A stretch of DNA of 64,000 nt from Polyangiales bacterium. Its GTDB lineage: Bacteria > Myxococcota_A > Polyangia > Polyangiales > Ga0077539. The DNA lies in the NCBI GenBank assembly GCA_044229975.1, contig JBGARZ010000017.1:96001-160000 (forward strand), in the 5' to 3' direction. A program made the translations under genes and the position numbers. The notes under the pieces are model-generated. The model was not told the origin of the DNA. It did no database searches and saw only the letters and a program-made list of their open reading frames with translations. This document shows positions 40,087-59,853 of the stretch, in pieces; position 1 is the stretch's first letter; every line of letters starts with the position of its first letter.

Positions 40087-42030
40087 ATGACGACCGTGCT
40101 CGTGATCGATGACAACGATGTCGACCGCGAGCAGATCCGCCGCCTGCTGTCCGGGCGGCACGATTTGATGGAGGCCGCGACGGCGCGGGAAGGTCTGTCC
40201 CTGATCGCGTCCGCGTCGGTGGATTGTGTGCTCCTGGACTACCGCCTGCCGGACGAGGACGGCGTGCGGGTGCTCGACCTGTTGGCGGGTCGCCTCCTCC
40301 CGATCGTGATGCTGACCTCGCAGGGGAGCGAGCAGGTCGCGGTCGAGGCGCTGAAGCACGGCGCGGTGGACTACCTCCTCAAGAGCGAGCTCACCCGCGA
40401 CCGCTTGCAGAAGGTGGTGGAGGTCGCCATCGAGCAGGGTCGCCTCCGGCAGGAGCTCGACCGCAACCAGCGCGCGCTGGAGCTCGCCGTCGGCCAACTG
40501 CGCGAGCAGCGCAACGAGCTCGCGGCCGCCAACCGGGCCCTCCAGCTACGTGAGGAGCACCTGCGCTTCGTGCTCGCGCAGCTTCCGGTGCTGCACTGGA
40601 CCACCGACACCACGCTCTCGATCACCCATGTGGGCGGCGCCGTCCTCGACACGATCGGAGGGAGCGCGACGGAGTATGTCGGGCAGACCGCGCGGGTCCT
40701 GCTCGGGGAGACCGAGGCGGAGGAGATGGACGCGCTCCATGCGCGAGCCCTCGCGGGCGAGGCGGGCGCGCACATCGCCGCCCGCAGCGGTCGCACGTAC
40801 CAGTGTCATGTCGGGGCGTTGCGTGACGAGGGCAGCGCCATCGTCGGGACGGTGGGGCTGGCGCTCGACGTGACCGCGGCGCGCGAGACCGAGCAACAGC
40901 TCCGTCACGCGGTGAAGATGGACGCGCTCGGCCAGCTCGCGGGCGGCGTCGCGCACGACTTCAACAACCTGCTGTCGGTGATCCTGGGCTTCGCGGGGTT
41001 CATGAAGGACGCGCTGCCCGCGGAGAGCGAGCTGCGTGACGACCTCGAACAGGTCCTCGGTGCGGCGCAGCGAGCCGCGGTGCTGGTGCGGCAGCTCCTG
41101 ACCTTCTCGCGGGTGTCGACCTCGGCGCCGCGCGTGGTGGTGGCCGCCGAGGTGGTCGGCGCCACCCTCCCGATGCTGCGACGCCTCGTGGGCGAGGACG
41201 TCGTGCTCACGCTCGCGGCCGCTCCGATGCCCTGGCGCGTCCGTATCGACCCGCACGCCCTGGAGCAGGTGGTGGTCAACCTCACGGTCAACGCGCGCGA
41301 CGCGATGACCCGCGGCGGCCGCATCGAGATCGAGGTCCAGCACGTGAGCCTCTCGGAAGAGCTCGCCCACTCGCGCAACCACCATCTCCCGGCTGGCGAC
41401 TACCTGGTGCTGTGCGTGACGGACGAGGGGGATGGCATCCCCCGTGACGTCCTGGAGCGCGTGTTCGACCCCTTCTTCACCACGAAGGAGGTGGGCCGTG
41501 GCACCGGCCTCGGACTCAGCACCGTCTACGGCATCGCGCGGCAGAGCGGCGGAACCGTCACGGTGTATTCGGAGCTCGGGCACGGCAGCTCGTTTCGCGT
41601 GTATCTCCCGCGCGCCCTCGACGCGGAGGACGCCGTCGGCAACGCCCTGACGCCCGTCCCTTCGGGCAGCGAGACGGTGCTGCTGGTCGAGGACGAGGAG
41701 CCGGTGCGGGCGGTCGCTGCACGCGCCCTGCGTAGGCTGGGCTACACGGTGATCGAGGCGTCGGATGGGGCCTCCGCGATCGCCCTCTGCCGCGAGACGT
41801 CGACGGCGATCGACCTGGTGCTGACGGACGTCGTGATGCCGGGGCTCGCCGGCCCGGAGGTGGCCTGCGCGCTGCTGGAGCTTCGCCCGACGCTGCGGGT
41901 GCTCTACATGTCGGGCTACACCGACCGCGCCGCGCGCGAGCGAGGAAGGCTCCCTCCCGACGCGCGGCTTATCGAGAAGCCGTTGACGCTCGACCGACTC
42001 GGACGAGCGGTGCGCGCGGCGCTCGGCTGA
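40087..42030 (+). CDS. Hybrid histidine kinase (REC-PAS-HisKA-HATPase-REC)
   Basis: LLDYRLPDEDG; LAGGVAHDFNNLL; NARDAM; FDPFFTTK..GRGTGLGL; C-terminal TDVVMPG. Confidence 0.93.
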   Translation: MTTVLVIDDNDVDREQIRRLLSGRHDLMEAATAREGLSLIASASVDCVLLDYRLPDEDGVRVLDLLAGRLLPIVMLTSQGSEQVAVEALKHGAVDYLLKSELTRDRLQKVVEVAIEQGRLRQELDRNQRALELAVGQLREQRNELAAANRALQLREEHLRFVLAQLPVLHWTTDTTLSITHVGGAVLDTIGGSATEYVGQTARVLLGETEAEEMDALHARALAGEAGAHIAARSGRTYQCHVGALRDEGSAIVGTVGLALDVTAARETEQQLRHAVKMDALGQLAGGVAHDFNNLLSVILGFAGFMKDALPAESELRDDLEQVLGAAQRAAVLVRQLLTFSRVSTSAPRVVVAAEVVGATLPMLRRLVGEDVVLTLAAAPMPWRVRIDPHALEQVVVNLTVNARDAMTRGGRIEIEVQHVSLSEELAHSRNHHLPAGDYLVLCVTDEGDGIPRDVLERVFDPFFTTKEVGRGTGLGLSTVYGIARQSGGTVTVYSELGHGSSFRVYLPRALDAEDAVGNALTPVPSGSETVLLVEDEEPVRAVAARALRRLGYTVIEASDGASAIALCRETSTAIDLVLTDVVMPGLAGPEVACALLELRPTLRVLYMSGYTDRAARERGRLPPDARLIEKPLTLDRLGRAVRAALG

Positions 42031-42039
42031 GGGCGCCTC

Positions 42040-42465
42040 TCAGGGAAACTCCACGATGCGCCAGTAGTGATCGAGGAGCCCGATGAGCCGCATGAAGCCG
42101 GTGCCGACGTCGCTCTTCACGATGTAGCCCGCGACGTTGAAGTCGTACGAGGCCACACGATCCTCGTCGCTGCGAGACGTGGTCAGCACGAAGACCACGC
42201 TGTCCTTCAGCTCAGGGTCGGCGCGGAGCTCGGCGAGAAACTCCAGGCCGTTCATGCGGGGCATGTTGAGGTCGAGGAGGATGAGGTACGGCCGCGCGAT
42301 CGCCTCCGCTCCATCGCCTCGCAGGAGGGCCAGCGCCTCGATGCCGTCGATGGCCGTGGTGATGGGGTTGCTGATGCGCTCGCGCTTGAAGGCGCGGCGG
42401 ACGGCCTCGTGCTCGATGACGTTGTCCTCCACCAGCAGGACGCTCACGGTTCGACCTGGCATCAC
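42040..42465 (-). CDS. Rcp1-like single-domain response regulator
   Basis: LLVEDN, ILLDLNMPRMNG, FVLTTS...D...Y...VAGYIVK, YW.IVEFP. Confidence 0.9.
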   Translation of the reverse strand: MMPGRTVSVLLVEDNVIEHEAVRRAFKRERISNPITTAIDGIEALALLRGDGAEAIARPYLILLDLNMPRMNGLEFLAELRADPELKDSVVFVLTTSRSDEDRVASYDFNVAGYIVKSDVGTGFMRLIGLLDHYWRIVEFP

Positions 42466-44006
42466 CCTACCCTCACGACGCCGTCACAGCGCATGGGCCA
42501 CGTGAACACGACGGCCGTGCCACGCCCCTCGGACTCCACCCGGGCCTTCCCCCCGAAGACCTCGACGGTCTTCTTCACGATCGCGAGCCCCACGCCGCTG
42601 CCCTCCACCTGATCGCGCGGCCGCAGCGTCTGGAACATCCGGAACACCCGCTCGTGGAACTCCGGCTTGATGCCCGGGCCATCGTCCTGCACACGCACCT
42701 CGATGCGACCGTCCGTCGGCACGGCGCTCACGACGATGGTCCCCTCCGGGCGATCGTGGTGCTTGAGGGCGTTGCTGATGAGGTTGCGCAGCACCTTCTC
42801 GAAGGGCGTCCGCGGCGTGCGAAGGCTGACGTCCTCTCCGTCCAGCCGCACCGCGAAGCCCGGGGGCGGGGCGTGGAGCGCGAGGATGTTGCCGAAGACC
42901 TCGCGCAGCGTGAAGGGGTGCGCGTCGTCCACCATCCGCCCGACGCGCGAGTACTCCAGGAGGTCGTCGAGGAGCTGCTCCATCCGCTGCACGCGGTCGT
43001 TGACGAGGCGGAGGTGCTGGGCCGACGCGGGCGGGAGGGCGTCGCCGACGTCCTCGACGATCCAGCTCACCAGGTTGCGGACGTCGCGCAGCGGTGACTT
43101 GAGGTCGTGCGACGTGACGTAGGCGAAGTCGTCGAGTTCGCGGTTGGAGCGCTCGAGCTCGCGCACGTGGTGGTCGATGCGCGCGGCCATCCGGACCTTC
43201 TCGCTGACGTCGTCGAAGATGACCCCGAGGTAGTCCTCGCGGAGCGCGAAGCACTGCGCCTCGAAGGTGCGCCGGGTCTCCGGGTCGCTGCCGCGCACAT
43301 TGGTCCACGATCGCGGGACGCGGTCGCCGAGCGTCGCGGTCCAGAGGTCGACGTACTGGGGGCGGACCTCCTGGTTGAGGTCCCGCACCTGTCGCCCGAT
43401 GGCCCCGCGGAGGTCCCAGTCGCTGGAGCGCACGGCCGCGGGGTTGACCGTCACCAGTCGAAACGTCGTCGGGTCGGCCGGGTCGTCGAGGTGCCAGATC
43501 ACCATGCCGACGGAGGCGTTCTGGAAGAGGTCGACGAAGCGGGCGACCTCGGCCTCGGCCCGGCGGACCAGGTCTTCCTTCCCGGCGATGTACGCAGAGC
43601 CGAGCTCCGCCATCGCGACGTCCGTGAAGCGTTCCATCCCCCAGAGGATCCCCTCGCTCCGAGGGTCGAGGTCGTGCAGCACGCGACCACGAATCACGCC
43701 ACGGTAGGCGCCCAGCAGCCCGACCCAGTCGCGAAACTCGATGCCCATCCGCGCGTACGCGTTGCCTTGCGCCCGCAGGTGGGCGAGGTACCCGTCCCAC
43801 TCACCGTCGACCAGCGCCCGGCGCTGCTGCGCCGCGCCCATGGTGCGCTGCGCGTCGCGCATCGCCGGGGTCATCGCCGCGAAGGTCGCGGCCATCGATG
43901 GGATCTTCTCCGCCGCCGCCGCCACCGCCGCCTCGACCTCCGTGCGGGTGGCCTCCAGCGTCGCCCACAAGTCCCGCAGCGCCTCCCGTTCGTCCATCGC
44001 GGCCAT
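42462..44006 (-). CDS. Sensor histidine kinase with N-terminal globin-like domain and PAS
   Basis: Helical N-domain (YLAHLRAQGNAYARMGI.F.DW), PAS, ELERSNRELDDFAYVTSHDLKSPLR, NLISNA.KH, DDGPGI, GSGVGL. Confidence 0.9.
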   Translation of the reverse strand: MAAMDEREALRDLWATLEATRTEVEAAVAAAAEKIPSMAATFAAMTPAMRDAQRTMGAAQQRRALVDGEWDGYLAHLRAQGNAYARMGIEFRDWVGLLGAYRGVIRGRVLHDLDPRSEGILWGMERFTDVAMAELGSAYIAGKEDLVRRAEAEVARFVDLFQNASVGMVIWHLDDPADPTTFRLVTVNPAAVRSSDWDLRGAIGRQVRDLNQEVRPQYVDLWTATLGDRVPRSWTNVRGSDPETRRTFEAQCFALREDYLGVIFDDVSEKVRMAARIDHHVRELERSNRELDDFAYVTSHDLKSPLRDVRNLVSWIVEDVGDALPPASAQHLRLVNDRVQRMEQLLDDLLEYSRVGRMVDDAHPFTLREVFGNILALHAPPPGFAVRLDGEDVSLRTPRTPFEKVLRNLISNALKHHDRPEGTIVVSAVPTDGRIEVRVQDDGPGIKPEFHERVFRMFQTLRPRDQVEGSGVGLAIVKKTVEVFGGKARVESEGRGTAVVFTWPMRCDGVVRVG

Positions 44007-44062: not shown

Positions 44063-45631
44063 TTACGCCCTCGCGACGTTGTCTTCGGCGAAGGAGACGT
44101 CAAGCCCGCGCGCTCGCAGGGCAGCAACGAGCGGCGCCTTGTCCAGCGCGCGGAGGTACGACTCCGACGGGGTGATGAGCCCGGCGTCGACGAGGTCGAG
44201 CAGGGCGTCGTGGAGGGTCACCATCCCGAGGCGACGCGAGGTCTGCATCACCGTCGGGAGCTGGAAGGTCTTCCCCTCGCGGATGAGGTTGGCCACCGCG
44301 GGGATCGACAGCAGCACCTCGCGCGCCGCCACGCGCCCGCCGCCGACCTTCCTGCACAGCGTCTGCGAGATGACGCCGCGGAGCGAGCCCGCGAGCATCA
44401 CGCGGATCTGCGCCTGCTCGTCGGCGGGAAACTGGTCGATGATCCGGTCGATGGTGCTGGCCGCCGTCGAGGTGTGGAGCGTTCCGAAGACGAGGTGCCC
44501 GGTCTCCGCGGTCTCCAGCGCGATGCCCACGGTCTCCAGGTCGCGCAGCTCGCCCACCAGGATGACGTCGGGGTCTTCGCGCAGCGCGGCGCGCAGGGCG
44601 GTCTTGAAGGAGCCGGTGTGCACGCCCACCTGCCGCTGGGTGATCACGCAGCGCTTGCCCGCGTGCACGAACTCGATCGGGTCTTCGATGGTGATAACGT
44701 GGTCGTGGCGCGAGCGGTTGACCAGGTCGACGAGCGCGCAGAGCGTCGTGGACTTGCCCGACCCGGTGGGCCCGGTCACCAGCACCAGGCCCCGGCTGAG
44801 CTGACAGAGCCGCTGCACCTCCGGCGAGATGCCCATCTGCTCGACCGTCACCACGGCCGCCGGGATGTGACGAAACACCGCCGCGGGCCCGAGCCGCTCG
44901 CGCAGCGCGTTGGCGCGGAATCTCCCCGCCCCGGCGATCTCGTACGCGTAGTCGGTGTCGTTGGTCTGCGCGAACTGCCGCCGGTTTCGCTCGGGCATCA
45001 CCGAGCGGAGCATCGCCTCCAGCGCAGCGCGCTCCAGCGGCGGAGCGTCCACCCGCACCATCTCGCCGTGCAGCCGGATGATGGGGCACTGCCCGCAGCG
45101 CAGGTGGAGGTCGGAGGCGCCGCGGCGCACGAGGTCGACCAGCAGGGCGTCGAGCGCGGCCCGCGCGTGGTCGCTCCCCGCGAAGGAGTGGATGGCGTCG
45201 TCGTCGTCCGGGTCTGCCGGGAGCACGGTGTCGAGCACCTCGGGCGGCGGGACGACGGGCGCGGGCTCGATGTTGGGGTCGGGGCCGCGGAAGGCGCGGT
45301 GCTGACCGGTGAGGCGTTCGCGCTCCTTCTCCTCGTCGAGGGTGACGTGAGCGCGCCAGAGCCCGTCGTCGCGCGCGGCCAGCACGGTGAAGGCGCCGTC
45401 TTCGGAGACGTACGCGAAGTGCGCGGGCTGCCCCTCGTTGATGAGCATCGCCGCATCCGGAGGCGCGATCTCGCAAAGGAGCAAAACCACCTGCGGTCCC
45501 GTGAGGGCGGTGCGGGTGACCGGGCGGAGCGCGCCGTCGATCTCGAACTCGGCGAAGGCCCCTTCGGTCAGCCGGAGCCCGCTGGCGCGGTGGCCCTTCA
45601 TGCCCGCGAGGAGCCGGTCGAGTTGGGCCAT
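44063..45631 (-). CDS. pilT: PilT-family retraction ATPase with an extra degenerate N-domain
   Basis: GASDLHL, GPTGSGKST, TIEDPIE, ALREDPDVILVGELRD, GHLVFGTLHT, AVANLIREGK. Confidence 0.88.
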   Translation of the reverse strand: MAQLDRLLAGMKGHRASGLRLTEGAFAEFEIDGALRPVTRTALTGPQVVLLLCEIAPPDAAMLINEGQPAHFAYVSEDGAFTVLAARDDGLWRAHVTLDEEKERERLTGQHRAFRGPDPNIEPAPVVPPPEVLDTVLPADPDDDDAIHSFAGSDHARAALDALLVDLVRRGASDLHLRCGQCPIIRLHGEMVRVDAPPLERAALEAMLRSVMPERNRRQFAQTNDTDYAYEIAGAGRFRANALRERLGPAAVFRHIPAAVVTVEQMGISPEVQRLCQLSRGLVLVTGPTGSGKSTTLCALVDLVNRSRHDHVITIEDPIEFVHAGKRCVITQRQVGVHTGSFKTALRAALREDPDVILVGELRDLETVGIALETAETGHLVFGTLHTSTAASTIDRIIDQFPADEQAQIRVMLAGSLRGVISQTLCRKVGGGRVAAREVLLSIPAVANLIREGKTFQLPTVMQTSRRLGMVTLHDALLDLVDAGLITPSESYLRALDKAPLVAALRARGLDVSFAEDNVARA

Positions 45632-45638
45632 CGTCTTC

Positions 45639-46100
45639 CTACCTCCTCGGGCGGGCGAAGGAGAGGTGCTCGCGGTTGATGACCACCACCCGGTCGCGGG
45701 TGAAGAGGGCGACGAAGCGCCGCGTCGTGTCGTTGAGGAAGTCCACGAGGCGCGGCCGGTCGGCGGGCTGCTCGGGGAAGATCGAACCGCTCCACACGCT
45801 CCCGTCGGAGAGCGTGAACTCGACGTGCATCCCGAGCACGCCGCGCTCGACGGTGTCGTCCCGCTCGGGGAGCATCGTGACGAGCGTGAAGATGTGCGAC
45901 TTCTGCACGATCACGACGTCGCCCGAGTCGAGCTCCAGCGGCAGGAACGGGGCCTCGGCGTTGAGCGCGTCGACGGGCTCCTCGGGGCCGACACGATGGC
46001 GCGTCGCGGCCTGGAGGAAGATGTCGCCCGCGAGGGAGACGCGGTGGATGAGCGTGAGGTCGACGCGGTGCCGAACCTTCTCGACCCGGTAGTCGCTCAT
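45639..46100 (-). CDS. Two-repeat small beta-barrel protein (DUF6812-like)
   Basis: ATG overlaps the upstream stop; repeats V.LTL....L.G.IF...D.LN...FLPL...VIVQKSHI and VEFTLSDGSVWSG.IF...RL.DFLN...FV.L...VVINREHL. Confidence 0.7.
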   Translation of the reverse strand: MSDYRVEKVRHRVDLTLIHRVSLAGDIFLQAATRHRVGPEEPVDALNAEAPFLPLELDSGDVVIVQKSHIFTLVTMLPERDDTVERGVLGMHVEFTLSDGSVWSGSIFPEQPADRPRLVDFLNDTTRRFVALFTRDRVVVINREHLSFARPRR

Positions 46101-47248
46101 GCGGGAGTCCTGCTGGCGCCACCCTGAGAAACGTCGGGGACGACGGTGTCCTTGAAGGCGTTGGGCAGACGCAGGAGGAAGGACGTCGGCCAGTTGGTGG
46201 TCTCCACGAGGCGGATGGTGCCGCCGTGGGCCTCCAGCGCGCGTCGGCAGAAGTAGAGGCCGAGCCCCGAGTGGCCCTCGTGCATCGGCTCTTCGCAACC
46301 GCGCGTGAACTTCTCGAAGATGCGCGCGCGGTCCTCGGGACGGATCGGCGCTCCGTCGTTGGAGACCGTGATCTCGATGCCGTCGCGCACCGCGAGGTCG
46401 ACGCCGATGCGGCCCTTGCTGGGCGTGTATCGCAGCGCGTTGTCGAGGAGGTTCTCCAGCACGCGTCGCAGCAGCGCCTTGTCGGCCTTCATCGCGACGG
46501 ACGCCGTCGGCGGTCGCAGCAGCGTGACGTTGCGGGCCTCCGCCCGGCTCTCGTACGAGGCCAGCACTTCGCGCAGGATCTTCGCCACGACCAGCACCTC
46601 GCGCCGGAGGTTCAGGCCAGGGCTCTCCAGGCGCGAGAGCGTGAGGAGGTCGCGCACCAGGTTCTGCATCCGGGCCGTGGCCGCGCGCGCGTCGCTGATG
46701 GGTCCGACCAGGTTGAACTGCGTCGGCAGCAGACCCCCGCGCACCGCCTCGATGGCGCCGGACACGACCCCGAGCGGCGCCGTGAGGTCGCGCACCAGCA
46801 GCGCCGACAGCTCGCGGTTCTCCCGCTGGGCCTCGTGCAGCGCGGCGTTGCGTCGCTTGAGCGTGTCGAGCGCCTCCTTGAGGCCGAGGAGGGCGCGCAC
46901 CCGCGCGAGCAGCACGGGCGCGTCGATGGGCTTCTCCAGGAAGTCGTCCGCGCCGGCCCGCAGCGCGCGCAGGCGGTGCTCCCGATCGGCGTGCGCCGTG
47001 ACGAGCACGACGGGGACGTGCGCCCCCGCCTCGGTCGCACGAAGGAGCTGGAGCACCTCGACGCCATCGAGGTCGGGCATCATCAGGTCGAGCAGGACGA
47101 GGTCGACGCCGCCGCGCGCCAGGACGTCCAGCGCCACGCGACCGTGGGCAGCCTGCAACAGCTCGTACCCTTCGGGCTCCAGCAGGGCCGCGAGGGCGAG
47201 GAGGTTCCTCGGCTGGTCGTCCACGAGCAGGATCCGTTTCGTCATCAC
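46097..47248 (-). CDS. REC-histidine kinase-like protein with the H-box His replaced by Arg
   Basis: LLDLMMPDLDG; LLVRDLTAPL (expected VHDL..PL); NLLDNA.RY, NDG, GLGLYFC. Confidence 0.85.
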   Translation of the reverse strand: MMTKRILLVDDQPRNLLALAALLEPEGYELLQAAHGRVALDVLARGGVDLVLLDLMMPDLDGVEVLQLLRATEAGAHVPVVLVTAHADREHRLRALRAGADDFLEKPIDAPVLLARVRALLGLKEALDTLKRRNAALHEAQRENRELSALLVRDLTAPLGVVSGAIEAVRGGLLPTQFNLVGPISDARAATARMQNLVRDLLTLSRLESPGLNLRREVLVVAKILREVLASYESRAEARNVTLLRPPTASVAMKADKALLRRVLENLLDNALRYTPSKGRIGVDLAVRDGIEITVSNDGAPIRPEDRARIFEKFTRGCEEPMHEGHSGLGLYFCRRALEAHGGTIRLVETTNWPTSFLLRLPNAFKDTVVPDVSQGGASRTPA

Positions 47249-47255
47249 CCACCTC

Positions 47256-49541
47256 TCACGCGCTGCACACCGCGAGCACCTGTCGCAGGTCGGTGAGACC
47301 CGCGAGGCACTTCTCGACGCCGTCCTGCAACAGCGTCGTCATGCCCGACGCCATCGCCACCTCGCGGAGCTCGTCCACCGGCGCCGATCGCGCGATGAGC
47401 CGCTTCAACCCAGGGTCGGTCACCATCAGCTCGTGCAGCGCGATGCGGCCCTTGTAGCCGGTGTTGGCGCACGCCGCGCACCCCGGCGCCCGCCACAGCG
47501 TAAGGGGTTCGCCGTTGAGCCTCGCCGCGAGGGCCTCCTCTCCCAGCGCCAGGGCGACCTCGGCGCGCGCGTCGGGCGGGGCGGCGTAGCTCTGTCGGCA
47601 CACCTTGCAGAGCCCGCGGGCGAGGCGCTGCGCGAGCACGCCGACGAGCGCATCGGCGAAGCTGAAGGGGTCGAGCCCCATGTCGATGAGCCGCACCACG
47701 GTCTCCGGCGCGCTGTTGGTGTGGAGCGTCGAGAGCACGAGGTGGCCCGTGAGCGACGCCTCCACCGCGGTGCCGGCGGTCTCCTCGTCGCGCATCTCAC
47801 CGACCATGATGACGTCCGGGTCGCCGCGCAGAAACGCCCGCATCGCCGCCGCGAAGGTCAGCCCCGCGCGGACGTTGACCTGCATCTGCCGCAGGCCCGC
47901 CTGGGTGATCTCCACCGGGTCCTCGGCGGTCCAGATCTTCATGTCGGGCGTGTTGATGGCGCCGAGCATGGAGTGCAGCGTCGTGGTCTTGCCCGACCCG
48001 GTGGGCCCGACGCACAGGATGAGCCCGTAGGGCCGCGCCAGGATGCGCGCGACCTCGCGGTGGTTGCGCGGCGAGAGCCCCATCTGCGCCAGGGGCAGCG
48101 GCTTCGACGAGGCGAGGATGCGCAGCACGGCGTCCTCGTCGCCGCGCGACGTCGGGAAGGTCGCGACGCGCAGCTCGACGGGCTGCCCCGAGAGCCGCAG
48201 CCGGATCTTCCCGTCCTGCGGCTTGCGCCGCTCGGCGATGTCGAGCCCGGCGAGGATCTTCATGCGGGCCACCAGCGCGCGCCGGCTCGCGGGCGGCAGC
48301 TCCCGGTACACGACGCAGTCGCCGTCGACGCGGAAGCGCACGATGGTGTTGTCCTCCGCGCCGTTGGGCTCGATGTGGATGTCCGACGCGCCGCGGCGAT
48401 AGGCGTCGCTGAAGATGCGGTGCACCAGGCGCACGATGACGTTGTCGGCCACCTCCGGCGTCTCGGCCCCGCTCGCGGATTCATCCTCCTCGGGCGGGAG
48501 CGCGCCGAGCTCGCGCAGGATCTGCTCGAAGTCCTCCTGCGGCGGTGGTGGCGTGGGTGGCGTCGAGGCTTCGGCCTTCGGCGGAGGGGCGGGCCTCGCG
48601 ATGTGGGCGTCGACGTAGCGGGCGAGCTGCGAGGGCGCGACGATCACCTCGCGCACCCGACGCCCGATGCGAAACTCCAACAGGTTGCGGTTTTCGGGCG
48701 CCATGGGCTCGCGGCTGGCGAGCGTGAGGCTGCGCGCGTCGAAGTCCGTCGGCAGCACGCCGTAGCGCTGGATGAGCTCCTGCGGCACGGCGGTGGCCGC
48801 CGCGGGGTCGAGGGTGATGGCGTCGAGGTCGACGAAGGGCAGACGGAACTTCGCCGCCAGCGCCTGCGCGAGCTGCACCTCGGTGATGAGGTCCATCCCA
48901 CGCATGACTTCTCCGAGTCGCAGTCCCTCCTCGGGCGGCGGCGCGGGCGTCGCCGGTGGGGCCGTGCTCACCGTCGTGCGCCGCACGAGCGAGCGGTGCC
49001 GCAGCTCCGTCTGCTGGGCGAGCGCGCGGTCGATGTTCTCGCGGCTGACGACACCCATGGAGAGCAGGATGGCGCCGAGCTGCTCCAGGCGTTCGAAGCC
49101 GAGGACGTTGTCGCGCAGGAAGAACAGCTCGCGAAGATCGCTGTCGGCCTCCAGCGGATACGCCACCATCCTCCGCGCGTTGGCGTCGGCGCCCGTCGGC
49201 ACGCGCACGTCGAGGTGGCGCTCGCGCGAGACGTGGACGCGCAGCGGTTCGAGCGGCGTGTCGATGGGGGCCGGGACGCTCTCGCCGGGTCGTCGACTGA
49301 AGCCCACGTAGACGACGCGCTCGGCGGGCACGAGCATCCGCCGCGCGAAGGCGTCGACCTCGCCCTCGGTGGAGCCCAGCCACATCACGAACTCCGTCGC
49401 GTCGGCGCGGAAGCCCGTGAGCATGCCGTGGAGGGTGCGCCCGTCGGTGAGCCCCAACACGGCGGGTACGCCGAGCCCCTGCGGACCCGGGCTGATGCCC
49501 CAGGCACCGGGTGTCGTGCCGACGGCCCGCGGGTTCTTCAC
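47256..49541 (-). CDS. PilB/GspE-family ATPase 1 (N-terminal beta-barrel repeats + MshEN)
   Basis: GASDIHIEP, LDIAERRKPQDGKI, GPTGSGKTTTL, EDPVEI, DPDVIMVGEMRD, CKVC...CAAC; GTG start at 49541 inferred. Confidence 0.88.
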   Translation of the reverse strand: MKNPRAVGTTPGAWGISPGPQGLGVPAVLGLTDGRTLHGMLTGFRADATEFVMWLGSTEGEVDAFARRMLVPAERVVYVGFSRRPGESVPAPIDTPLEPLRVHVSRERHLDVRVPTGADANARRMVAYPLEADSDLRELFFLRDNVLGFERLEQLGAILLSMGVVSRENIDRALAQQTELRHRSLVRRTTVSTAPPATPAPPPEEGLRLGEVMRGMDLITEVQLAQALAAKFRLPFVDLDAITLDPAAATAVPQELIQRYGVLPTDFDARSLTLASREPMAPENRNLLEFRIGRRVREVIVAPSQLARYVDAHIARPAPPPKAEASTPPTPPPPQEDFEQILRELGALPPEEDESASGAETPEVADNVIVRLVHRIFSDAYRRGASDIHIEPNGAEDNTIVRFRVDGDCVVYRELPPASRRALVARMKILAGLDIAERRKPQDGKIRLRLSGQPVELRVATFPTSRGDEDAVLRILASSKPLPLAQMGLSPRNHREVARILARPYGLILCVGPTGSGKTTTLHSMLGAINTPDMKIWTAEDPVEITQAGLRQMQVNVRAGLTFAAAMRAFLRGDPDVIMVGEMRDEETAGTAVEASLTGHLVLSTLHTNSAPETVVRLIDMGLDPFSFADALVGVLAQRLARGLCKVCRQSYAAPPDARAEVALALGEEALAARLNGEPLTLWRAPGCAACANTGYKGRIALHELMVTDPGLKRLIARSAPVDELREVAMASGMTTLLQDGVEKCLAGLTDLRQVLAVCSA

Positions 49542-49560
49542 CGTGGGCTTCGGGGAGTCG

Positions 49561-51096
49561 TCAGCGTGAGGGCGGGGCGAGCTCACCGGGGAGATCCTCT
49601 CCGTCCGTCTGTGGCCCGACGGGGGGTGCCGAAAGCGGCGACGACGCCGCGGTGTCACGCGCCCACAACGCCGCGAGGGGCGCGCCGCCGACCATCGTCC
49701 AGTGCCGGACGCGCCGCCAGCCCACGAGCGCCCAGCGACCGTTGGTGACGCGGTACACACGCCTTCCCTCGGGGATGGTTTCCTCCATCGAGCCGCCCAG
49801 GACGCACCCGTCGCGCGAGGCCGCGAACACGAAGCGCAGCGGCTCGAAGACGGGGTCGCTCCACACGACCACCGGGCGCGTGCAGCCCGCGTCGGCGAGG
49901 ATCGCGTCACGGACCAATGACGGCACCGCCATCCGTTCGCGCGGCACCTGCGGCCCCAGGAAGCGGCCACCCGGTGCGTCCTCGCGCAGCGCAACGGCGC
50001 CGGTGCTCCCTTGCAGGAAGTGCGAGGCGAGCGCCGCGGTGACCGCCAACGCCAGCGCCGCGGAGCCCACCAGCGCCCGCTCGGGGCGCGTCTTCGCCCA
50101 GGCCGCGCACCACATCGCCCACGGCGCGACGAGCACGAAGCCCCAACGGTCGGCGCCCGGCGCGGCGAGCAGCGGCAGCGCCACCGTCGCCACCGCGAGC
50201 TGGAGCCCGGCGAAGCGACCCATCTCGTCGTGCAGCACGCGACGCGCGCTCAACGCCACGAGGAGGAGCAGCACGCAGCTCGCGAGGGCCTCGACCCACG
50301 AGCGAACGCCCGCGAAGTGCGCCAGCGTCGAGACCCCGCTCAGCGAGTCCATGACTCGATGGAGCCCCCCACCGACGCCCGCTCTCGATGCGTGCGTCGA
50401 CGCGGGCAGGAGCCTCACCGCCAGCGCGCCATGCAACACCCCCAGACCGACGGCCACCCAGGTCGAGGGCCACTGGAAGAGCGGACGCCTCGACGGCAGC
50501 AGCACCCACAGCACGCACGCCACCGCCGGGATCGCCGCGAGCGGCGAGAAGTGCAGGCCCAGCGCGACGCACTGCGCGGCGAGCACGAGCGCAGGCGGTG
50601 ACCGACGCCGCACGGCGTACCACCACGCGACCGGCCCGAGCGCCGCGAGCCCCAGCGAGATCGCGGAGTGATGGTCCCCCGTGCGCGACCACGCGACGCT
50701 CCACGGGTGCAGGAGCAGCACGGCCACGAAGATGAGCGCGGGGCGCCGACGTAGGAGCAGCGTGGCGGACGCGGTCAGCGCGAGGAGCGCCAGCACCATC
50801 ACCAGCCGCGCCGACATGAACGAGGGCCCGAACATCGCGAAAGCTACCGTCGTGAGTGCCCGCGCCGCTGCGATGCCGGGGCCATGGGACGTCGGGCCGT
50901 GGGCGCCGGCGATCACCCGCAACGGCAGGTCGCCCTCCGCGCCCCAGGGGTTGGGAATCGCGCCCAGCCAGGGAAGGCGCAGCGCGAGACCCGCGGCGAG
51001 GAGGGCCGCGAGCGCGAGCGAGGGCGAAGGGCGATCGGGCCCGACGTAGGTGTCCTCCGGGCCGGACGTGAGTCGGCGGATCAGGACGGCGAGCAC
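49561..51096 (-). CDS. Multi-pass membrane protein, ArnT/PMT-like glycosyltransferase fold
   Basis: LALRL.WL....W..EG, FGPSFMSARL, HPWSVAWSR pattern of GT-C enzymes; start uncertain. Confidence 0.55.
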   Translation of the reverse strand: MLAVLIRRLTSGPEDTYVGPDRPSPSLALAALLAAGLALRLPWLGAIPNPWGAEGDLPLRVIAGAHGPTSHGPGIAAARALTTVAFAMFGPSFMSARLVMVLALLALTASATLLLRRRPALIFVAVLLLHPWSVAWSRTGDHHSAISLGLAALGPVAWWYAVRRRSPPALVLAAQCVALGLHFSPLAAIPAVACVLWVLLPSRRPLFQWPSTWVAVGLGVLHGALAVRLLPASTHASRAGVGGGLHRVMDSLSGVSTLAHFAGVRSWVEALASCVLLLLVALSARRVLHDEMGRFAGLQLAVATVALPLLAAPGADRWGFVLVAPWAMWCAAWAKTRPERALVGSAALALAVTAALASHFLQGSTGAVALREDAPGGRFLGPQVPRERMAVPSLVRDAILADAGCTRPVVVWSDPVFEPLRFVFAASRDGCVLGGSMEETIPEGRRVYRVTNGRWALVGWRRVRHWTMVGGAPLAALWARDTAASSPLSAPPVGPQTDGEDLPGELAPPSR

Positions 51097-51131
51097 CCCG
51101 GAGCCGGGTCGCTCGGGAACCGCCTGCGGAC

Positions 51132-52541
51132 TCACTTCAACACCATCGCGACGACGGCCGCGCCGACCACGACGAGGGTCAGGACGAACCCAACCCACGG
51201 ACCGCGCGCCCAGGCGAACGCGGGCGGTTCGGTGGGGGCCGGGATGAAGTCCAAGCGCTGCCGACGATGCGGGACATGGACGTTCGGAGGCGGAGCCACG
51301 GACGGAGGTCGCTGCCTGGGTACGAGCTCGGTGCCGATCTCGGGATCGCTGACGGGCGCAGCGACCTGCGACTTCGCGGGGAGCGGTCGCGTCGGGACAC
51401 GATCGTCGTCGTCCGTCACCTCGACTGCGGGTGCGGCTGCGGGCGCAGCCTCCACGGGTTGTGGCAACGCATCCGGCGCCGGAGCGCTGGGGACGATGGC
51501 GTGCAGCTCGAAGGGCTCGGCCGTGACACCACGACGCGACGCCTGACGCTCGCGACGGGCGCCCAGCTTCTCCTCGACGTCGTGGAGAAACTCGTCCGGC
51601 AGGATGTCGTTGATGCCCTCGAAGGCGCTGGGCCGCGGCATGAATCCGAGGGCGAGCTCGGGCGTGACGTTCTTCCAGATCGCGCACCCGGCGAGCGCCG
51701 CGCGAAACTCCGCCATGGTGCGGTAGCGCTTGTTGAGCTCGCGCTCGAGCGCGCGATGCACCACCGCTTCGAGGTCGGCGGCGACGTCGGGGAGGTGATC
51801 TCGGAGCGGCGTCGGGCGACCGTAGATGATCTGCGCCATCACGGCGTTGGGGTTGCTCGCGCCGAAGGGGAGCGTGCCGCAGAGCATCTCGTAGAGCATC
51901 GTGCCGACGCTCCAGATGTCGGTGCGCGCGTCGATGGAGCTGTCACCCAGCGCCTGCTCGGGGGACATGTACCAGGGCGTCCCGAAGACCATGCCCGTCG
52001 CCGTGCGCTCGTTGCGGTCGAGCGCGTCGATGACCTTGGCGATGCCGAAATCGATCGCCTTCGGCACCACGACCCCGTCGTCGGTCTCGTGCAGGAAGAC
52101 GTTCTCCGGCTTGATGTCACGATGCACGATGCCGACGGCGTGCGCGGCGACGAGCGCGTCCATCACCGGGAGCGCCACCGCGATGGTCGACAGCGACGAG
52201 AGGCTCCCGAGCTCGTTGAGGCAGCCCGAGATGTCGGCGCCCCGCAGCAGCTCCTGCACGATGAAGCGCGTGCGCAGCCGCTCGTCGTTGCCGAAGCCGT
52301 GAACGCCCACGATGTTGGGGTGCCCGATGCGCGACGCGGCCTGCGCCTCGCGCTCGAAGCGCTTCACCAGATCCTCCCGATCGTAGAGGTCCTCGCGCAG
52401 GGTCTTGAGGGCGACCACGTCCCCGGTCTCCGCGTCCTCGACCCGGTACACCGCGCCCATGCCGCCCTGGCCCAGCACGCCGCATACGCGGTAGCGCCGG
52501 GCGACCATCGTTCCCTCTGCCAAGAGCGTCGGTTCAGCCAT
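51132..52541 (-). CDS. Ser/Thr protein kinase with C-terminal TM
   Basis: LGQGGMGAVY, VALK, HPNIV, HRDIKPEN, DFGIAK, GTPWYMSPEQ, DIWS.G. Confidence 0.95.
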   Translation of the reverse strand: MAEPTLLAEGTMVARRYRVCGVLGQGGMGAVYRVEDAETGDVVALKTLREDLYDREDLVKRFEREAQAASRIGHPNIVGVHGFGNDERLRTRFIVQELLRGADISGCLNELGSLSSLSTIAVALPVMDALVAAHAVGIVHRDIKPENVFLHETDDGVVVPKAIDFGIAKVIDALDRNERTATGMVFGTPWYMSPEQALGDSSIDARTDIWSVGTMLYEMLCGTLPFGASNPNAVMAQIIYGRPTPLRDHLPDVAADLEAVVHRALERELNKRYRTMAEFRAALAGCAIWKNVTPELALGFMPRPSAFEGINDILPDEFLHDVEEKLGARRERQASRRGVTAEPFELHAIVPSAPAPDALPQPVEAAPAAAPAVEVTDDDDRVPTRPLPAKSQVAAPVSDPEIGTELVPRQRPPSVAPPPNVHVPHRRQRLDFIPAPTEPPAFAWARGPWVGFVLTLVVVGAAVVAMVLK

Positions 52542-52550
52542 CGATGGAGC

Positions 52551-54878
52551 TCACGTCAGTGGACCTTCGCCGCGACCGCAGACCGCGGACACCTGGCGCA
52601 GGTCGGTCTTGCCATCGAGGGCCTTCTCGATGCCGTCCTGGAGGAGCGTCGTCATGCCCGAGGCCCTCGCGATCGCGCGCAGCTCGGTGATGTTGGCCCG
52701 ACGCTGGATCGCGCGCCGAAGGTCGTCGTTGACCACGAGAAACTCGTGGAGCCCCACGCGTCCCTTGTAGCCAGTCTTCCCGCACGCGTCGCACCCCGTC
52801 GCGCGGCAGAGCGTCGCCGAGCGGTCGTCGCGCAGCCGCTGGATCTTCGGGTGGGTGCCTCCGTACATCCGTTCGATCTCGTCGACCTCCGCGCGCGCGG
52901 GGCGGTAGTGGTCGACGCACTTGGGGCACATCCCGCGGGCGAGGCGCTGGGCCAGCACGCCGCAGAGCGCGTCACCAAACGTGAAGGGCTCGACGCCCAT
53001 GTCGATGAGCCGGGTGATGGTCTCCGGCGCGCTGTTGGTGTGCAGCGTCGAGAACACCAGGTGACCCGTGAGCGACGCTTCCACCGCGATGCCGGCCGTC
53101 TCCGGGTCGCGCATCTCGCCCACCATGATGACGTCCGGGTCGGCGCGCAGAAACGAGCGCAGCGCCGCCGCGAAGGTGAACCCGATGCGGGGCTGCACCT
53201 GCACCTGTCGCAGGCCCGCCTGGGTGATCTCCACCGGGTCCTCGGCGGTCCAGATCTTCATGTCGGGCGTGTTGATGGCGCCGAGCATGGAGTGCAGCGT
53301 CGTGGTCTTGCCCGACCCGGTCGGTCCCACGCACAGGATCAACCCGTGCGGCTGGGCGATGGCCCCGCGCACCTCCTTCAGGTTGCGCTCGCTGAAGCCC
53401 ACCCGGTCGATGGGCATCGGTCGGGACGACGCCAGCACGCGCATCACCACGTCCTCGTTGCCGTTGACCGTGGGGATGGAGGCCACGCGCAGCTCCACCA
53501 TCTTGTCGTGGAAGCGGAAGCGGATCTTCCCGTCCTGCGGCTTGCGGCGCTCGGCGATGTCGAGGTTCGCCATCACCTTCACGCGCGCCACCAGCGCCGA
53601 GCGCACCGACGCTGGAAACTCCTGGTACGCCTCGCACTCGCCGTCGACGCGGAAGCGCACCACCACGTCGCGCTCGTCGCCGTAGGGCTCGATGTGGATG
53701 TCCGACGCGCCCTTGCGGCACGCGTCGGCGATCACCTGGTTGACCAGCTTGATGACGGCGCTGTCCTGCGCGTCGAGGTCTTCGCCCGCGCCGACCGCCT
53801 CCACCGCGCTCCGCTGCGACTCGGCCGCGAGCTGCGCCAGGATCTTCTTGAACTCCCCTTCTCCCTTGTCGATGTTGCCGAGGGCCGCGTCGACGAAGCG
53901 CTTCAACTGCGTCGGGGTCGCGAGCACCTCGCTCACCCGGCGCTTGAGGTGCACGCGCACGAAGTCGATGCCGTCGGTGTTGAGCGGGTCCGCCACCGCG
54001 AGCGTCACCACCCGGTCGGTCAGGGCGATGGGGAGCACCAGGTGCTTCTCGATCACCTCGCGCGGAATCGAGCGCACCGCCTCGGGCTCGATGGTCACCT
54101 GGTCGAGGTCGACGAAGGGCATCGAGAACTTCTCGGCCAGCGTCAGCGCCAGGTCGGCCTCGGTGATGATCCCCATCCCCACCAGCACGTCGCCGAGCTT
54201 GCGCCCCATGCGTCGCTTCTGCTCGTCGAGCCCCGCCTGGATGTCCGCCGCGGTCGCGAGCCCCGCCTCCACCAGCACCTCGCCGATGCGCATGCGCTTG
54301 CGCGCCTGGAGCTCGACGGCCTGCGCCACCGCCTCTGCGGTGACGCGCTTCTGCTCGACGAGGATCTGCCCGAGCGGCGCCGCCCTCTGCGCCGCCTGCG
54401 CCTGGAGTCCGCGCGCCAGAGGCTCCGGCCCGATCACCCCCTTCCGCATCATCATCGCGCCGATGGGCTCGACCAGCTCCCGGGCCGTGACCCCGTGGTG
54501 ATAGAACCAGAACTCGCGGAAGGGGCTCTCCTCCTCGGTGCTCGCGGCGAAGAACCCCAGCGGGTGCTGGAGCGCCGCCACGTCGACCTTCACCGCGAGC
54601 TTTCGCCCGCCCACGGCATGGACGCGGAGCAGCCGGTTGGCCGTCGGCAGCGTGCGCGGCGGGTGGCCGTCACCGCGGTGAAACCCGACCCACGCGACCC
54701 GCTCGGCCGCGACCATCTTCACCGACCCTTCGATCGTCCGCTCGCTCAGCTCGATGCGATGGTCGCTCGCGTTGGGCACGAAGGCCGACAGCCGCCCCAC
54801 CCACTGCTCGCCCGTCACCGTCACCACGGTGACCGTCGTCCCCGCCTTCACCGCGTCCACTGCTCGATCCATCGCCAT
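52551..54878 (-). CDS. PilB/GspE-family ATPase 2 (N-terminal beta-barrel repeats + four MshEN-type motifs)
   Basis: RIGEVLVEAGL, KLGDVLVGMGII, GASDIHIEP, GPTGSGKTTTL, CPKC...CDAC. Confidence 0.9.
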   Translation of the reverse strand: MAMDRAVDAVKAGTTVTVVTVTGEQWVGRLSAFVPNASDHRIELSERTIEGSVKMVAAERVAWVGFHRGDGHPPRTLPTANRLLRVHAVGGRKLAVKVDVAALQHPLGFFAASTEEESPFREFWFYHHGVTARELVEPIGAMMMRKGVIGPEPLARGLQAQAAQRAAPLGQILVEQKRVTAEAVAQAVELQARKRMRIGEVLVEAGLATAADIQAGLDEQKRRMGRKLGDVLVGMGIITEADLALTLAEKFSMPFVDLDQVTIEPEAVRSIPREVIEKHLVLPIALTDRVVTLAVADPLNTDGIDFVRVHLKRRVSEVLATPTQLKRFVDAALGNIDKGEGEFKKILAQLAAESQRSAVEAVGAGEDLDAQDSAVIKLVNQVIADACRKGASDIHIEPYGDERDVVVRFRVDGECEAYQEFPASVRSALVARVKVMANLDIAERRKPQDGKIRFRFHDKMVELRVASIPTVNGNEDVVMRVLASSRPMPIDRVGFSERNLKEVRGAIAQPHGLILCVGPTGSGKTTTLHSMLGAINTPDMKIWTAEDPVEITQAGLRQVQVQPRIGFTFAAALRSFLRADPDVIMVGEMRDPETAGIAVEASLTGHLVFSTLHTNSAPETITRLIDMGVEPFTFGDALCGVLAQRLARGMCPKCVDHYRPARAEVDEIERMYGGTHPKIQRLRDDRSATLCRATGCDACGKTGYKGRVGLHEFLVVNDDLRRAIQRRANITELRAIARASGMTTLLQDGIEKALDGKTDLRQVSAVCGRGEGPLT

Positions 54879-54890
54879 CTCCCGTCTCCC

Positions 54891-55822
54891 TCAAGGTTGC
54901 GCCGCGAAGACCCGGTTTCGCCCGTTGTGTTTGGCCTGGTAGAGCGCCCAGTCCGCCGCGGCCACGAGGGGGTCGCCGTCGTTCTGTCCCGGCAGCATCG
55001 TCGCGACGCCGACGCTCACGGAGACCCACGGAGCGGCCGCGCCTCCACCGTGTGGCAGCCGCAGCGCCTGCACCGCCTCGCGGAAGCGCTCCGCCCGCGC
55101 GAGCGCCGCCGCCGAGCCGTGCCCCGGCAGAATCAGCGCGAACTCCTCGCCTCCGTACCGCGCCGCGACCTCGCCCGCGCCGCTCCGCTGTGCGCCCAGC
55201 AGCGACGCCACGGTGCGCAGGCACTCGTCGCCCGCCTGGTGCCCGCGGGTGTCGTTGAAGGCCTTGAAGTGGTCGACGTCGATCATCAGCAGCGACAGCG
55301 GCGCGTCGGCGAAGGTCGCGTCGCGAGCCAGGCGCCGGAGCGACTCGTCGAAGCACCGCCGGTTGGAGAGACCCGTGAGCCCGTCCTGCTGGCTCAGCCG
55401 CGCGAGCTCCTCGTTGGCGTCCGCGAGGCGCGCCGTCAGCTCGCTCATGCGCCGGCGCATGTCGTCGATGCGCTGCATCGCGCGGATCTTGGCGTGCAGC
55501 ACCACGAAGCTCACCGGCTTCACGAGGTAGTCGTCGCCGCCCGCGTCGATGCCCTTCTCCAGGTCGAGGTCGGCCTCCGCGGCGGACAGGAAGATGATGG
55601 GCGTCCAGCCGTCGGGCTCCAGCGCGCGGATGCGCCGCGCCGTCGCGTACCCGTCCATCACGGGCATGATCGCGTCCATCAGCACGAGGTCGGGCTTCTC
55701 CTGGCGCCAGAGCGCGAGGCCCTTCTCGCCGTCCTCGGCCTCCAGCACCTGGTGGCCCATCCGCGCGATCATCGCCGCGAGCTTGGCCCGCACGACCCTC
55801 TGGTCCTCCACCACCACGATCT

Positions 55823-55826
<4 letters not shown>
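54891..55826 (-). CDS. REC-GGDEF diguanylate cyclase
   Basis: GTG overlaps the upstream stop; MDAIMPVMDG; DGLTGL.NRR, DVDHFK.FND..GH.AGD, RYGGEEF. Confidence 0.92.
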
Positions 55827-58585
<2,759 letters not shown>

Positions 58586-58598
58586 CCCGATGGCTCCC

Positions 58599-58643
58599 TC
58601 AGGCCTCGCCCACGAAGGTGACCGTCATCTGTCGGGTCTTCAT
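58599..58643 (-). pseudogene. Scar of an internally deleted FIST/NosP-like gene (14 codons)
   Basis: ATG..TGA mini-ORF MKTRQ-MTVTFVGEA; resembles the first and last residues of FIST proteins (..HNQTMTVT...E); 13 bp upstream of the kinase. Confidence 0.55.
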
Positions 58644-58671
58644 GGCCATCGACCGGTCCGTGAGGTGTTGG

Positions 58672-59853
58672 TCAGACGAGGGCCGCGGGCGCGGGGGGCG
58701 CCGCCGCCTCGACGCGGTTGCGACCCGCGCGCTTGGCCCGGTAGAGGGCGCGATCGGCGGACTCGACGAGCGAGTCGACCGAGGCCGCGCCGTCCCAGCT
58801 CGCGAGGCCGAAGCTGGCGGTGACCGCGATGACGCGGCCGCCCGAGTCCACCGGGCGCGCGGCGATCGCGACACGAAGGCGCTCGGCGACGCTCGTCCCC
58901 TTGACGAGGTCGCACCCGGGCAGGACGACCACGAACTCCTCGCCTCCGTAGCGAGCGACGAGGTCGTACGGGCGCAGGGTGGTCTGGAGACGCTCGACCA
59001 CGGCGCGGAGCACCGCGTCGCCCCCGGGGTGGCCGTAGGTGTCGTTGATCTGCTTGAAGTGATCGAGGTCGAGGAGCAGCAGCGAGACGCGCGTGCCTTC
59101 GCGCCGTGAGCGCACCAGCTCGCGCTCCAGGACACGGACGCCTTCGCCCCGGTTGAGCGCGCCGGTGAGCGGGTCGTAGAGGGCGAGGCGTCGCAGCACC
59201 TCGCGGGAGCGATGGAGCTGCCGCGCACGCCGTTCGAGCCGGCACGAGTTCTTCAGGGCGTTGAGGAAGTCCCGGTGAAACTGGGCTCCCTGGAGCCACA
59301 GGAAGACGACGTAGAAGATGAGCGTGAGGGCGAGGCCGGTGGAGAACTGGTCGGGGTGATAGAGCGTGGCCGTCGCGAGGATGGGGCCGACCAGCGCGAC
59401 GGTGTACGCGCGGAGCACCGTCGGCACGGGCGCGCAGCTGTTGACGGTGGCGGAGAGGACGCCCGCCGTCACGACGAGCACGAGGGTGGTCTGGGCGCCG
59501 AGGCCGTTGACGACGAGGCACGCCGCCGCCATCAGCCCCCAGTGAAAGCCCGCGAGCACCGTCACGAGCCCGAACTGCCGGAGCCACCGGCGGGAGCGAC
59601 TCCGGGCCTCCTGGCCGACGACCCGCGCGAGGTGCCAGTTCCACCCGACGAAGAGGAGCCGCACGGCGATGGCCGCGAGCGCGAAGGCCGGGTGCGCGAC
59701 GACCGTCGACGTGACCACCAGCATGAACACCACGAGGGCCGCGCTCGACAACGACGTGAGCCGCGCGCGCCGCGCGAGCGTCGTCTCGATCTGGGAGCGT
59801 AGCGGCAACGGTGGCAACGGTGTCGGTAGCGGGGCGTACTCCTCTACGGTCAC
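58672..59853 (-). CDS. Membrane-bound diguanylate cyclase
   Basis: About 6 TMs; DPLTGALNR, DLDHFK.INDTYGH..GD, RPYD I-site, RYGGEEF. Confidence 0.92.
   Translation of the reverse strand: MTVEEYAPLPTPLPPLPLRSQIETTLARRARLTSLSSAALVVFMLVVTSTVVAHPAFALAAIAVRLLFVGWNWHLARVVGQEARSRSRRWLRQFGLVTVLAGFHWGLMAAACLVVNGLGAQTTLVLVVTAGVLSATVNSCAPVPTVLRAYTVALVGPILATATLYHPDQFSTGLALTLIFYVVFLWLQGAQFHRDFLNALKNSCRLERRARQLHRSREVLRRLALYDPLTGALNRGEGVRVLERELVRSRREGTRVSLLLLDLDHFKQINDTYGHPGGDAVLRAVVERLQTTLRPYDLVARYGGEEFVVVLPGCDLVKGTSVAERLRVAIAARPVDSGGRVIAVTASFGLASWDGAASVDSLVESADRALYRAKRAGRNRVEAAAPPAPAALV

Follow-up and report, generated by a model that had tools for sequence, protein, structure and literature searches.

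The stretch analysed here, referred to as the window, comprises 64,000 nucleotides of contig JBGARZ010000017.1 (C17) from a Polyangiales bacterium, whose 10-Mb Myxococcota genome is 93% complete. On its minus strand lies a run of seven genes encoding two PilB-like ATPases (PilB1 and PilB2), a PilT-family ATPase, a protein of two DUF6812 repeats, a Ser/Thr kinase, a GT-C-like membrane protein and a REC-HisKA-HATPase protein (Table 1). An earlier reading of the bare sequence (the original prediction) had taken this run for a single undescribed motor system. The seven genes, their shared orientation and their tight spacing were all found where it had placed them, with junctions that are mostly overlaps or gaps of 12 nt or less (the size of the kinase/GT-C gap hinges on the uncertain start of the GT-C gene), as were the hybrid kinase and two cyclases directly upstream of PilB2 (54891-59853). 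The idea of one system fared less well, since the gene order is not conserved beyond close relatives. We conclude that the seven-gene run is a recent patchwork, holding two modules of which no description was found by title or abstract in open-licence PMC and bioRxiv. The first is the gene pair of DUF6812 and a PilT with a doubled N-domain; the second is an orphan PilB with a fused N-terminal domain, predicted to consist of tandem Sm-like barrels. Neither the conserved pair nor the predicted Sm/Hfq-like folds had been noticed in the original prediction.

Table 1. Features of the motor gene run and its upstream neighbours, in window coordinates; the two modules are listed before the neighbouring genes.
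Feature	Position	Strand	Evidence
PilT-family ATPase, 522 amino acids, doubled N-domain	44063..45631	-	TIGR01420, motifs, repeat, separate clade
Extra PilT N-domain copy (residues 1-105)	45317..45631	-	HHalign to residues 155-262
Tandem DUF6812 protein, 153 amino acids, two predicted Sm/Hfq-like barrels	45639..46100	-	PF20660, repeats, AlphaFold2, VIA-align
PilB1, 776 amino acids, orphan PilB-like ATPase, N-terminal tandem Sm-like domain (predicted), N1D	47256..49586	-	Profiles, motifs, tree
PilB1 N-terminal domain, homologous to that of PilB2	49083..49469	-	Match to PilB2 N-domain profile (E 5e-14), alignment
PilB2, 775 amino acids, orphan PilB-like ATPase, tandem Sm-like N-domain (predicted), cyclic di-GMP motif pair, N1D	52551..54878	-	
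PilB2 N-terminal domain, two predicted Sm/Hfq-like barrels, no Pfam family	54462..54851	-	AlphaFold2, VIA-align, Foldseek
REC-HisKA-HATPase, phospho-acceptor His replaced by Arg, local neighbour	46097..47248	-	Pfam, codon, paralogue
GT-C-like multi-pass membrane protein, start uncertain, local neighbour	49561..~51096	-	PMT_2 sub-threshold, hydrophobic segments
Hanks-type Ser/Thr kinase, C-terminal membrane anchor, local neighbour	51132..52541	-	Pkinase E 1e-44, motifs
REC-GGDEF diguanylate cyclase, directly upstream of PilB2	54891..55826	-	Pfam
Hybrid kinase PAS-HisKA-HATPase-REC-REC-Hpt	55823..58585	-	Pfam
Membrane-bound GGDEF protein, start uncertain	58672..59853	-	Pfam

The protein previously described only as having two repeats belongs to DUF6812 (PF20660), and its internal repeat is confirmed by HHalign (probability 97%, E 6e-11). 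A scan of GTDB for DUF6812 gave 59 loci, of which one spurious 33-residue match was dropped, and a doubled-N PilT gene lies directly downstream of DUF6812 in 57 of the remaining 58 (54 by the strict rule and three confirmed afterwards; the last locus is a contig end). Four of these loci come from the window's genus and the rest are from Gemmatimonadota, or from unlabelled records with the same gene context, so the 58 loci do not represent independent events. More distant pairs were found in four of six metagenome loci, and a second, older pair is present in the same genome (C32:946204-948217; 27-29% and 47% identical to the window's pair). Among 400 sampled Myxococcota genomes, 17 carry a tandem DUF6812, at 18 distinct loci. 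At thirteen of these 18 loci a PilT- or PilB-type gene lies no more than 1.5 kb away, with DUF6812 directly before PilT in seven (six of them doubled-N), after PilT in one and before a PilB-like gene in five, one of which was scanned and is of the cyclic nucleotide monophosphate (cNMP) type. The DUF6812-PilT copies of the window's genus nest within those of Gemmatimonadota on starred branches, and an approximately unbiased test on 19 rows did not reject gemmatimonadotal monophyly (p 0.104); the tree suggests that the pair was likely acquired by transfer from Gemmatimonadota. No paper on DUF6812 was found in open-licence PMC and bioRxiv, and the present results give the family a first predicted fold and a functional context.

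Several further occurrences of DUF6812 were recorded. In Gemmatimonadota the pair (L060-L114) sits, by eye, in a constant context, flanked upstream by a CorC/HlyC-like gene in divergent orientation and downstream by typA. A solitary copy, 60% identical and with no ATPase neighbour, lies at C13:112679-113137 of the host genome, and its context recurs in a metagenome contig (L143). Other Myxococcota DUF6812 genes directly precede MglA-type small GTPase-like genes (L119, L120 and L121; by eye) or adjoin Ser/Thr kinases (L116, L117 and L133), and Thermus thermophilus has a PF20660 match above the cut-off.

The PilT of the window belongs to the PilT/PilU family (TIGR01420, 445 bits against a cut-off of 319), with Walker A, Asp box, Walker B and His box all intact. 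The doubling of its N-domain, proposed from the sequence, is borne out by the similarity of residues 1-105 to residues 155-262 (HHalign probability 97%, E 8e-11). Doubled-N PilTs form a clade separate from canonical PilT (FastTree support 0.99), and the window's protein has neither the single N-domain nor the clade position of the PilT in a canonical pilB-pilT-pilC cluster. At C10:130143-133460 of the same genome, two doubled-N PilT genes stand in tandem with no DUF6812 gene beside them.

Both PilB-like ATPases were correctly recognised in the original prediction. Both retain intact Walker A, Asp box, Walker B and His box motifs, which together with the four zinc-binding cysteines and the N1D domain make up the sequence signature of the secretion/pilus extension ATPase superfamily. 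Neither protein reaches the cut-off of a canonical subfamily: the pair scored 482 and 540 bits against 675.65 for canonical PilB (TIGR02538, which the host's own PilB on C32 passes with 787), 446 and 508 against 630 for GspE (TIGR02533), and 418 and 424 against 850 for TfpB (NF053534). In a FastTree phylogeny of 121 rows, the check that had been proposed for these ATPases, the PilBs fall outside the canonical PilB and GspE clades, in a separate clade with other members (support 0.98), just as the PilT falls outside its canonical clade. The suggestion that the motors carry MshEN-type domains for cyclic diguanosine monophosphate (c-di-GMP) holds for PilB2, which passes the c-di-GMP-motif model NF053729 (83 bits against a cut-off of 38) with a tandem 24-amino-acid motif at residues 197-250, and fails for PilB1, whose motifs are degenerate (33.5 bits). 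The first motif of PilB2, judged against the motif consensus, is kept in 21 of 23 homologues.

N-terminal input domains are common in this orphan PilB clade, with GAF, REC and others in 60 of the 149 matches scanned. The N-domain shared by PilB1 and PilB2 was detected in 16 of the 149 representative matches and in 20 of the 400 Myxococcota genomes, a survey in which only 10 candidates were scored per genome. No PilC/GspF platform, secretin or GspG/GspL match was found in 82 loci, nor in 19 further loci from other Myxococcota families that encode a PilB with this domain (taken from 21 matches, with one short contig and one weak match left out). In these 19 loci the PilB is solitary, without a DUF6812 or long PilT match, and pilin-like open reading frames flank two of them (L227 and L230; by eye). 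A sister group within the clade (P0214, P0216, P0223, P0226, P0236, P0245, P0247, P0258, P0263, P0276, P0285 and P0299) has a different N-terminus, unannotated and rich in beta structure, that often follows a WP motif and may be a second Sm-like type.

The AlphaFold2 models of the DUF6812 protein (predicted local distance difference test score 86.6) and of PilB2 residues 1-139 (85.2) each contain two small beta-barrels; fold prediction was run on the PilB2 copy of the N-domain and not on that of PilB1. In VIA-align, Hfq, LSm, Sm and YaeO structures make up most of the ranking for both models. The best match of the DUF6812 model is to Hfq (6gwk; Z 5.0, root-mean-square deviation (rmsd) 1.9 over 51 residues), and those of the PilB2 N-domain include YaeO/Rof at the top (6jie; Z 5.7, rmsd 2.7 over 68 residues) and Synechocystis Hfq (3hfo; Z 4.9, rmsd 2.4 over 59 residues). 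Foldseek matched the PilB2 N-domain to Hfq with a probability of about 1, but E was above 0.1 for this domain and for DUF6812 alike, and taken alone it gave no match with E <= 0.001 for either. Of the eight weak matches of the DUF6812 profile to PDB sequences, six are Sm-fold or small RNA-binding proteins (E 0.6-1). Membership of the Hfq family was not detected, with no Hfq Pfam match and no Hfq among PDB sequence matches up to E 10. Sequence comparison found no repeat homology within the PilB N-domain, and searches of the ESM Atlas returned only DUF6812 or hypothetical clusters for DUF6812 and only sub-0.9 matches for the PilB N-domain. Because the scores are modest, the Sm/Hfq fold is a prediction, and we describe the DUF6812 repeats and the PilB2 N-domain as predicted tandem Sm/Hfq-like barrels.

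The gene order was compared with eight other genomes of the window's genus and with loci beyond. All five PilB2 orthologues found (G001, G002, G004, G005 and G006; 73-78% identical) have different gene neighbours, with none of the other six genes among them, the contig in G005 being only 4.6 kb long. In G001-G004 a PilB1 orthologue adjoins the DUF6812-PilT pair in convergent orientation, genes for a His kinase, a GT-C protein or a Ser/Thr kinase being absent there, and the syntenic site of the window's genome (C32:909757-915247) is occupied by another cassette. The pair and the PilB with the Sm-like domain occur together in one of the 400 Myxococcota genomes, which is about what chance would give, and the PilB N-domain is present in 0 of 46 pair-carrying Gemmatimonadota-type genomes (incomplete genomes, without a positive control). 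These profile counts indicate that the two modules are independent outside the window's genus.

The remaining members of the run have the character of local neighbours. The call of a pseudo-kinase was right: an Arg (codon CGC at 46792-46790, one base from a His codon) stands in place of the HisKA phospho-acceptor His, so that the protein lacks the mark of an active histidine kinase, which a 55%-identical paralogue on C34 retains; it is absent from the syntenic loci of G001-G004. The Ser/Thr kinase has intact VALK, HRD and DFG motifs and a 73%-identical paralogue on C1, and, as the genome has 199 Ser/Thr kinase-like genes, a kinase neighbour is to be expected. The GT-C-like protein has eight hydrophobic segments, a PMT_2 match below the cut-off (E 1.3e-4) and two paralogues on C32. 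None of the three was found next to the motors at the syntenic loci inspected, and they are most likely passengers. In G006 a hemerythrin-GGDEF gene, encoding a different cyclase from that of the window, lies directly upstream of the PilB2 orthologue.

The host has its own pilus machinery, with a canonical pilB-pilT-pilC cluster at C32:120103-124235 and a gsp cluster on C35. As the original prediction held, the window contains no pilin, PilC/GspF or secretin gene, profile and pilin-motif matches being confined to other contigs (none of the four pilin-motif genes of the genome is on C17); PilMNOP genes were not recognisable in the C17 gene list, although no profile search was aimed at them. Partner genes were also not found just outside the window, and the complete pilus machine lies on other contigs. 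Across the genome, two PilC/GspF platform genes are set against seven PilB-like and eight PilT-like ATPases. Contig C17 looks accessory, with recombinase- and insertion sequence-like, stress and low-oxygen genes identified by eye, and has many paralogues of 60-90% identity on other contigs.

We lean, on balance, towards a lineage-restricted assembly in an accessory region, in which two independently conserved motor modules have come to lie among common signalling genes, the motors likely serving the canonical pilus platform, encoded elsewhere, as accessories for extension and retraction, and the predicted barrels likely acting in protein docking. Accessory motors for a machine encoded elsewhere, one of the two options in the original prediction, remain its best reading because the ATPases are non-canonical, no partners lie by the window and a full pilus machine is encoded elsewhere. 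Both PilBs and the PilT would dock on the host PilC, and DUF6812 would bind its PilT and position or regulate it, likely as an adaptor by analogy with cyanobacterial Hfq and PilB. PilB2, which carries the motif, could be switched by bound c-di-GMP, plausibly supplied by the adjacent REC-GGDEF protein under the control of the hybrid kinase. Several observations weigh against this. A cyclase neighbours only two of six PilB2-type loci, and five of the 18 Myxococcota DUF6812 loci, as well as the C13 copy, have no ATPase neighbour. The PilB tree lacks MshE and TfpB references, and the sampling of the clade is biased because its members were chosen as nearest matches. Z-scores of 5-6 fall in the range that VIA-align terms a possibly common arrangement, and HHalign does not demonstrate that DUF6812 and the PilB N-domain are homologous, with probabilities of 16-52% over one hairpin only (18% in one of the comparisons). 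Extension ATPases are described as highly machine-specific in PMC11656802, so a divergent PilB clade may not fit the host PilC.

Alternatively, the ATPases might be pilus-independent switches, namely c-di-GMP- or sensor-gated hexamers acting through their Sm-like domains, for example in exopolysaccharide control. The PilBs are always orphan in the loci surveyed, sensory N-termini abound in the clade, kinases and cyclases surround them, and a regulatory role of PilB in Myxococcus xanthus exopolysaccharide is reviewed in PMC11656802. We regard this as unlikely, since the complete motor anatomy is retained, including N1D and the zinc site, pilus ATPases are present in the sampled carriers, pilin-like open reading frames accompany two of the 19 loci noted above, and TfpB is likewise orphan, so that orphan position alone does not discriminate. 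Improbable too, and more so, is that the barrels are true RNA binders, so that an Hfq-like ring, borne or recruited by the motors, links pilus state to RNA regulation. The best fold matches are to Hfq and LSm, DUF6812 weakly matches the small RNA-binding protein 9nip (E 0.9), and its first repeat has a QKSHI motif with an invariant Lys67, which resembles the YKHAI motif of Hfq. Yet Sm folds also bind proteins, and the PilB N-domain ranking is topped by YaeO/Rof, an Sm-fold protein that acts as a protein binder. Moreover, the cyanobacterial Hfq at the pilus is reported in PMC12288463 to be unlikely to bind RNA.

The whole run might instead work as a single dedicated unit under common regulation in a young sub-lineage: the Ser/Thr kinase would phosphorylate the motors, the His-less kinase would serve as a sink or scaffold and the GT-C protein would glycosylate a surface substrate. 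Besides co-orientation and tight spacing, this reading draws on contigs of close relatives (about 88-92% identical), one of four runs of which bridges five junctions: PilT-DUF6812, PilB1-GT-C, kinase-PilB2, PilB2-REC/GGDEF and REC/GGDEF-hybrid kinase. A second run bridges PilT-DUF6812 and PilB1-GT-C only, no contig piece among those listed spans the His-less kinase gene, and contigs of 39,800 bp are on record both for a PilB2 from the 90% cluster of the window's protein and for a DUF6812 of 84% identity. The five kept junctions allow for selection on the cluster, a further point against a patchwork. As the order is absent from the eight other genomes of the genus and beyond, the run is common to a young sub-lineage only. 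The modules' near-chance co-occurrence, the close paralogues of the kinase, GT-C and His kinase genes, and the accessory, paralogue-rich contig further argue against a single system, to which we give little credence, and the seven-gene cluster itself does not merit pursuit as a new machine. More speculatively, and tentatively at best, the Sm/Hfq fold may be a recurring, undescribed adaptor layer of non-cyanobacterial pilus motors, with DUF6812 partnering the doubled-N PilT clade (in Gemmatimonadota, Myxococcota and a further lineage) and cNMP-PilBs, and a Sm-like domain fused to the orphan PilB clade. In the window's genus both could co-assemble through their barrels and couple c-di-GMP-gated extension to the retraction motor, possibly with RNA bound.

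Known systems offer partial parallels to the accessory motors that we favour. PMC8213720 describes Acinetobacter baylyi TfpB as a PilB homologue that lies apart from pilC, is distinct from canonical PilB and GspE, and works with the canonical PilB, also present, on one pilus. The window's PilBs differ in failing NF053534, in being about 190 amino acids longer and in the predicted tandem Sm-like domain. In PMC13584747, M. xanthus PilT paralogues (PilU/MXAN_1995, MXAN_0415 and MXAN_6705/6706) lie outside the pil cluster with intact motifs, as does the window's PilT, and cause partial motility defects; their longer termini are described as disordered, whereas the window's PilT has a second folded-type N-domain and a conserved DUF6812 before it. 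An orphan PilB/MshE-PilT neighbourhood comparable to ours is the Geobacter mshE-pilT3 locus (PMC5065972). The tandem motif pair of PilB2 resembles that of MshEN ATPases such as Vibrio cholerae MshE (PMC11656802), although there is no MSHA gene cluster, PilB2 carries the predicted Sm-like domain in addition, along with two motif copies that are degenerate, and PilB1 fails the model. The closest likeness to the predicted barrels is with cyanobacterial Hfq-PilB1-EbsA, where, according to PMC12288463, a Sm/Hfq-fold protein associates with a pilus motor ATPase. Pili depend on that Hfq, a single-domain protein that binds PilB at a C-terminal extension, whereas the window's predicted barrels are tandem, either joined to the N-terminus of PilB or in a protein encoded with PilT, and have no detectable Hfq sequence homology. 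Reviews list as open questions the reason for the many spare PilB and PilT ATPases of bacteria and the role of Hfq at the cyanobacterial pilus base. The locus offers a two-gene, small-protein test case (DUF6812 and doubled-N PilT) that is conserved across phyla, as well as a PilB with a built-in module predicted to be Sm-like.

A scan of the locus for promoters and terminators gave a result at chance level. The co-oriented run extends downstream of PilT to 42040 with a kinase and a REC protein; at 42462-44006 and 40087-42447 we noted a co-oriented kinase, whose unannotated N-terminus may by eye be globin-like, and a REC protein. Positions 1-38000 of the window and upstream parts of C17 resemble a low-oxygen and stress island (Usp-, BON-, rhodanese-, cbb3-oxidase- and STAS/Rsb-like genes; by eye), whose genes have paralogues of 60-93% identity on C1, C13, C15 and C31. 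Other unusual motors of the same genome are a double-ATPase PilT (C38:171330-173468), a HEAT-repeat PilT pair (C11:355914-360106), and two cNMP-PilBs and one GAF-PilB at C26:121822, C32:570137 and C11:334610.

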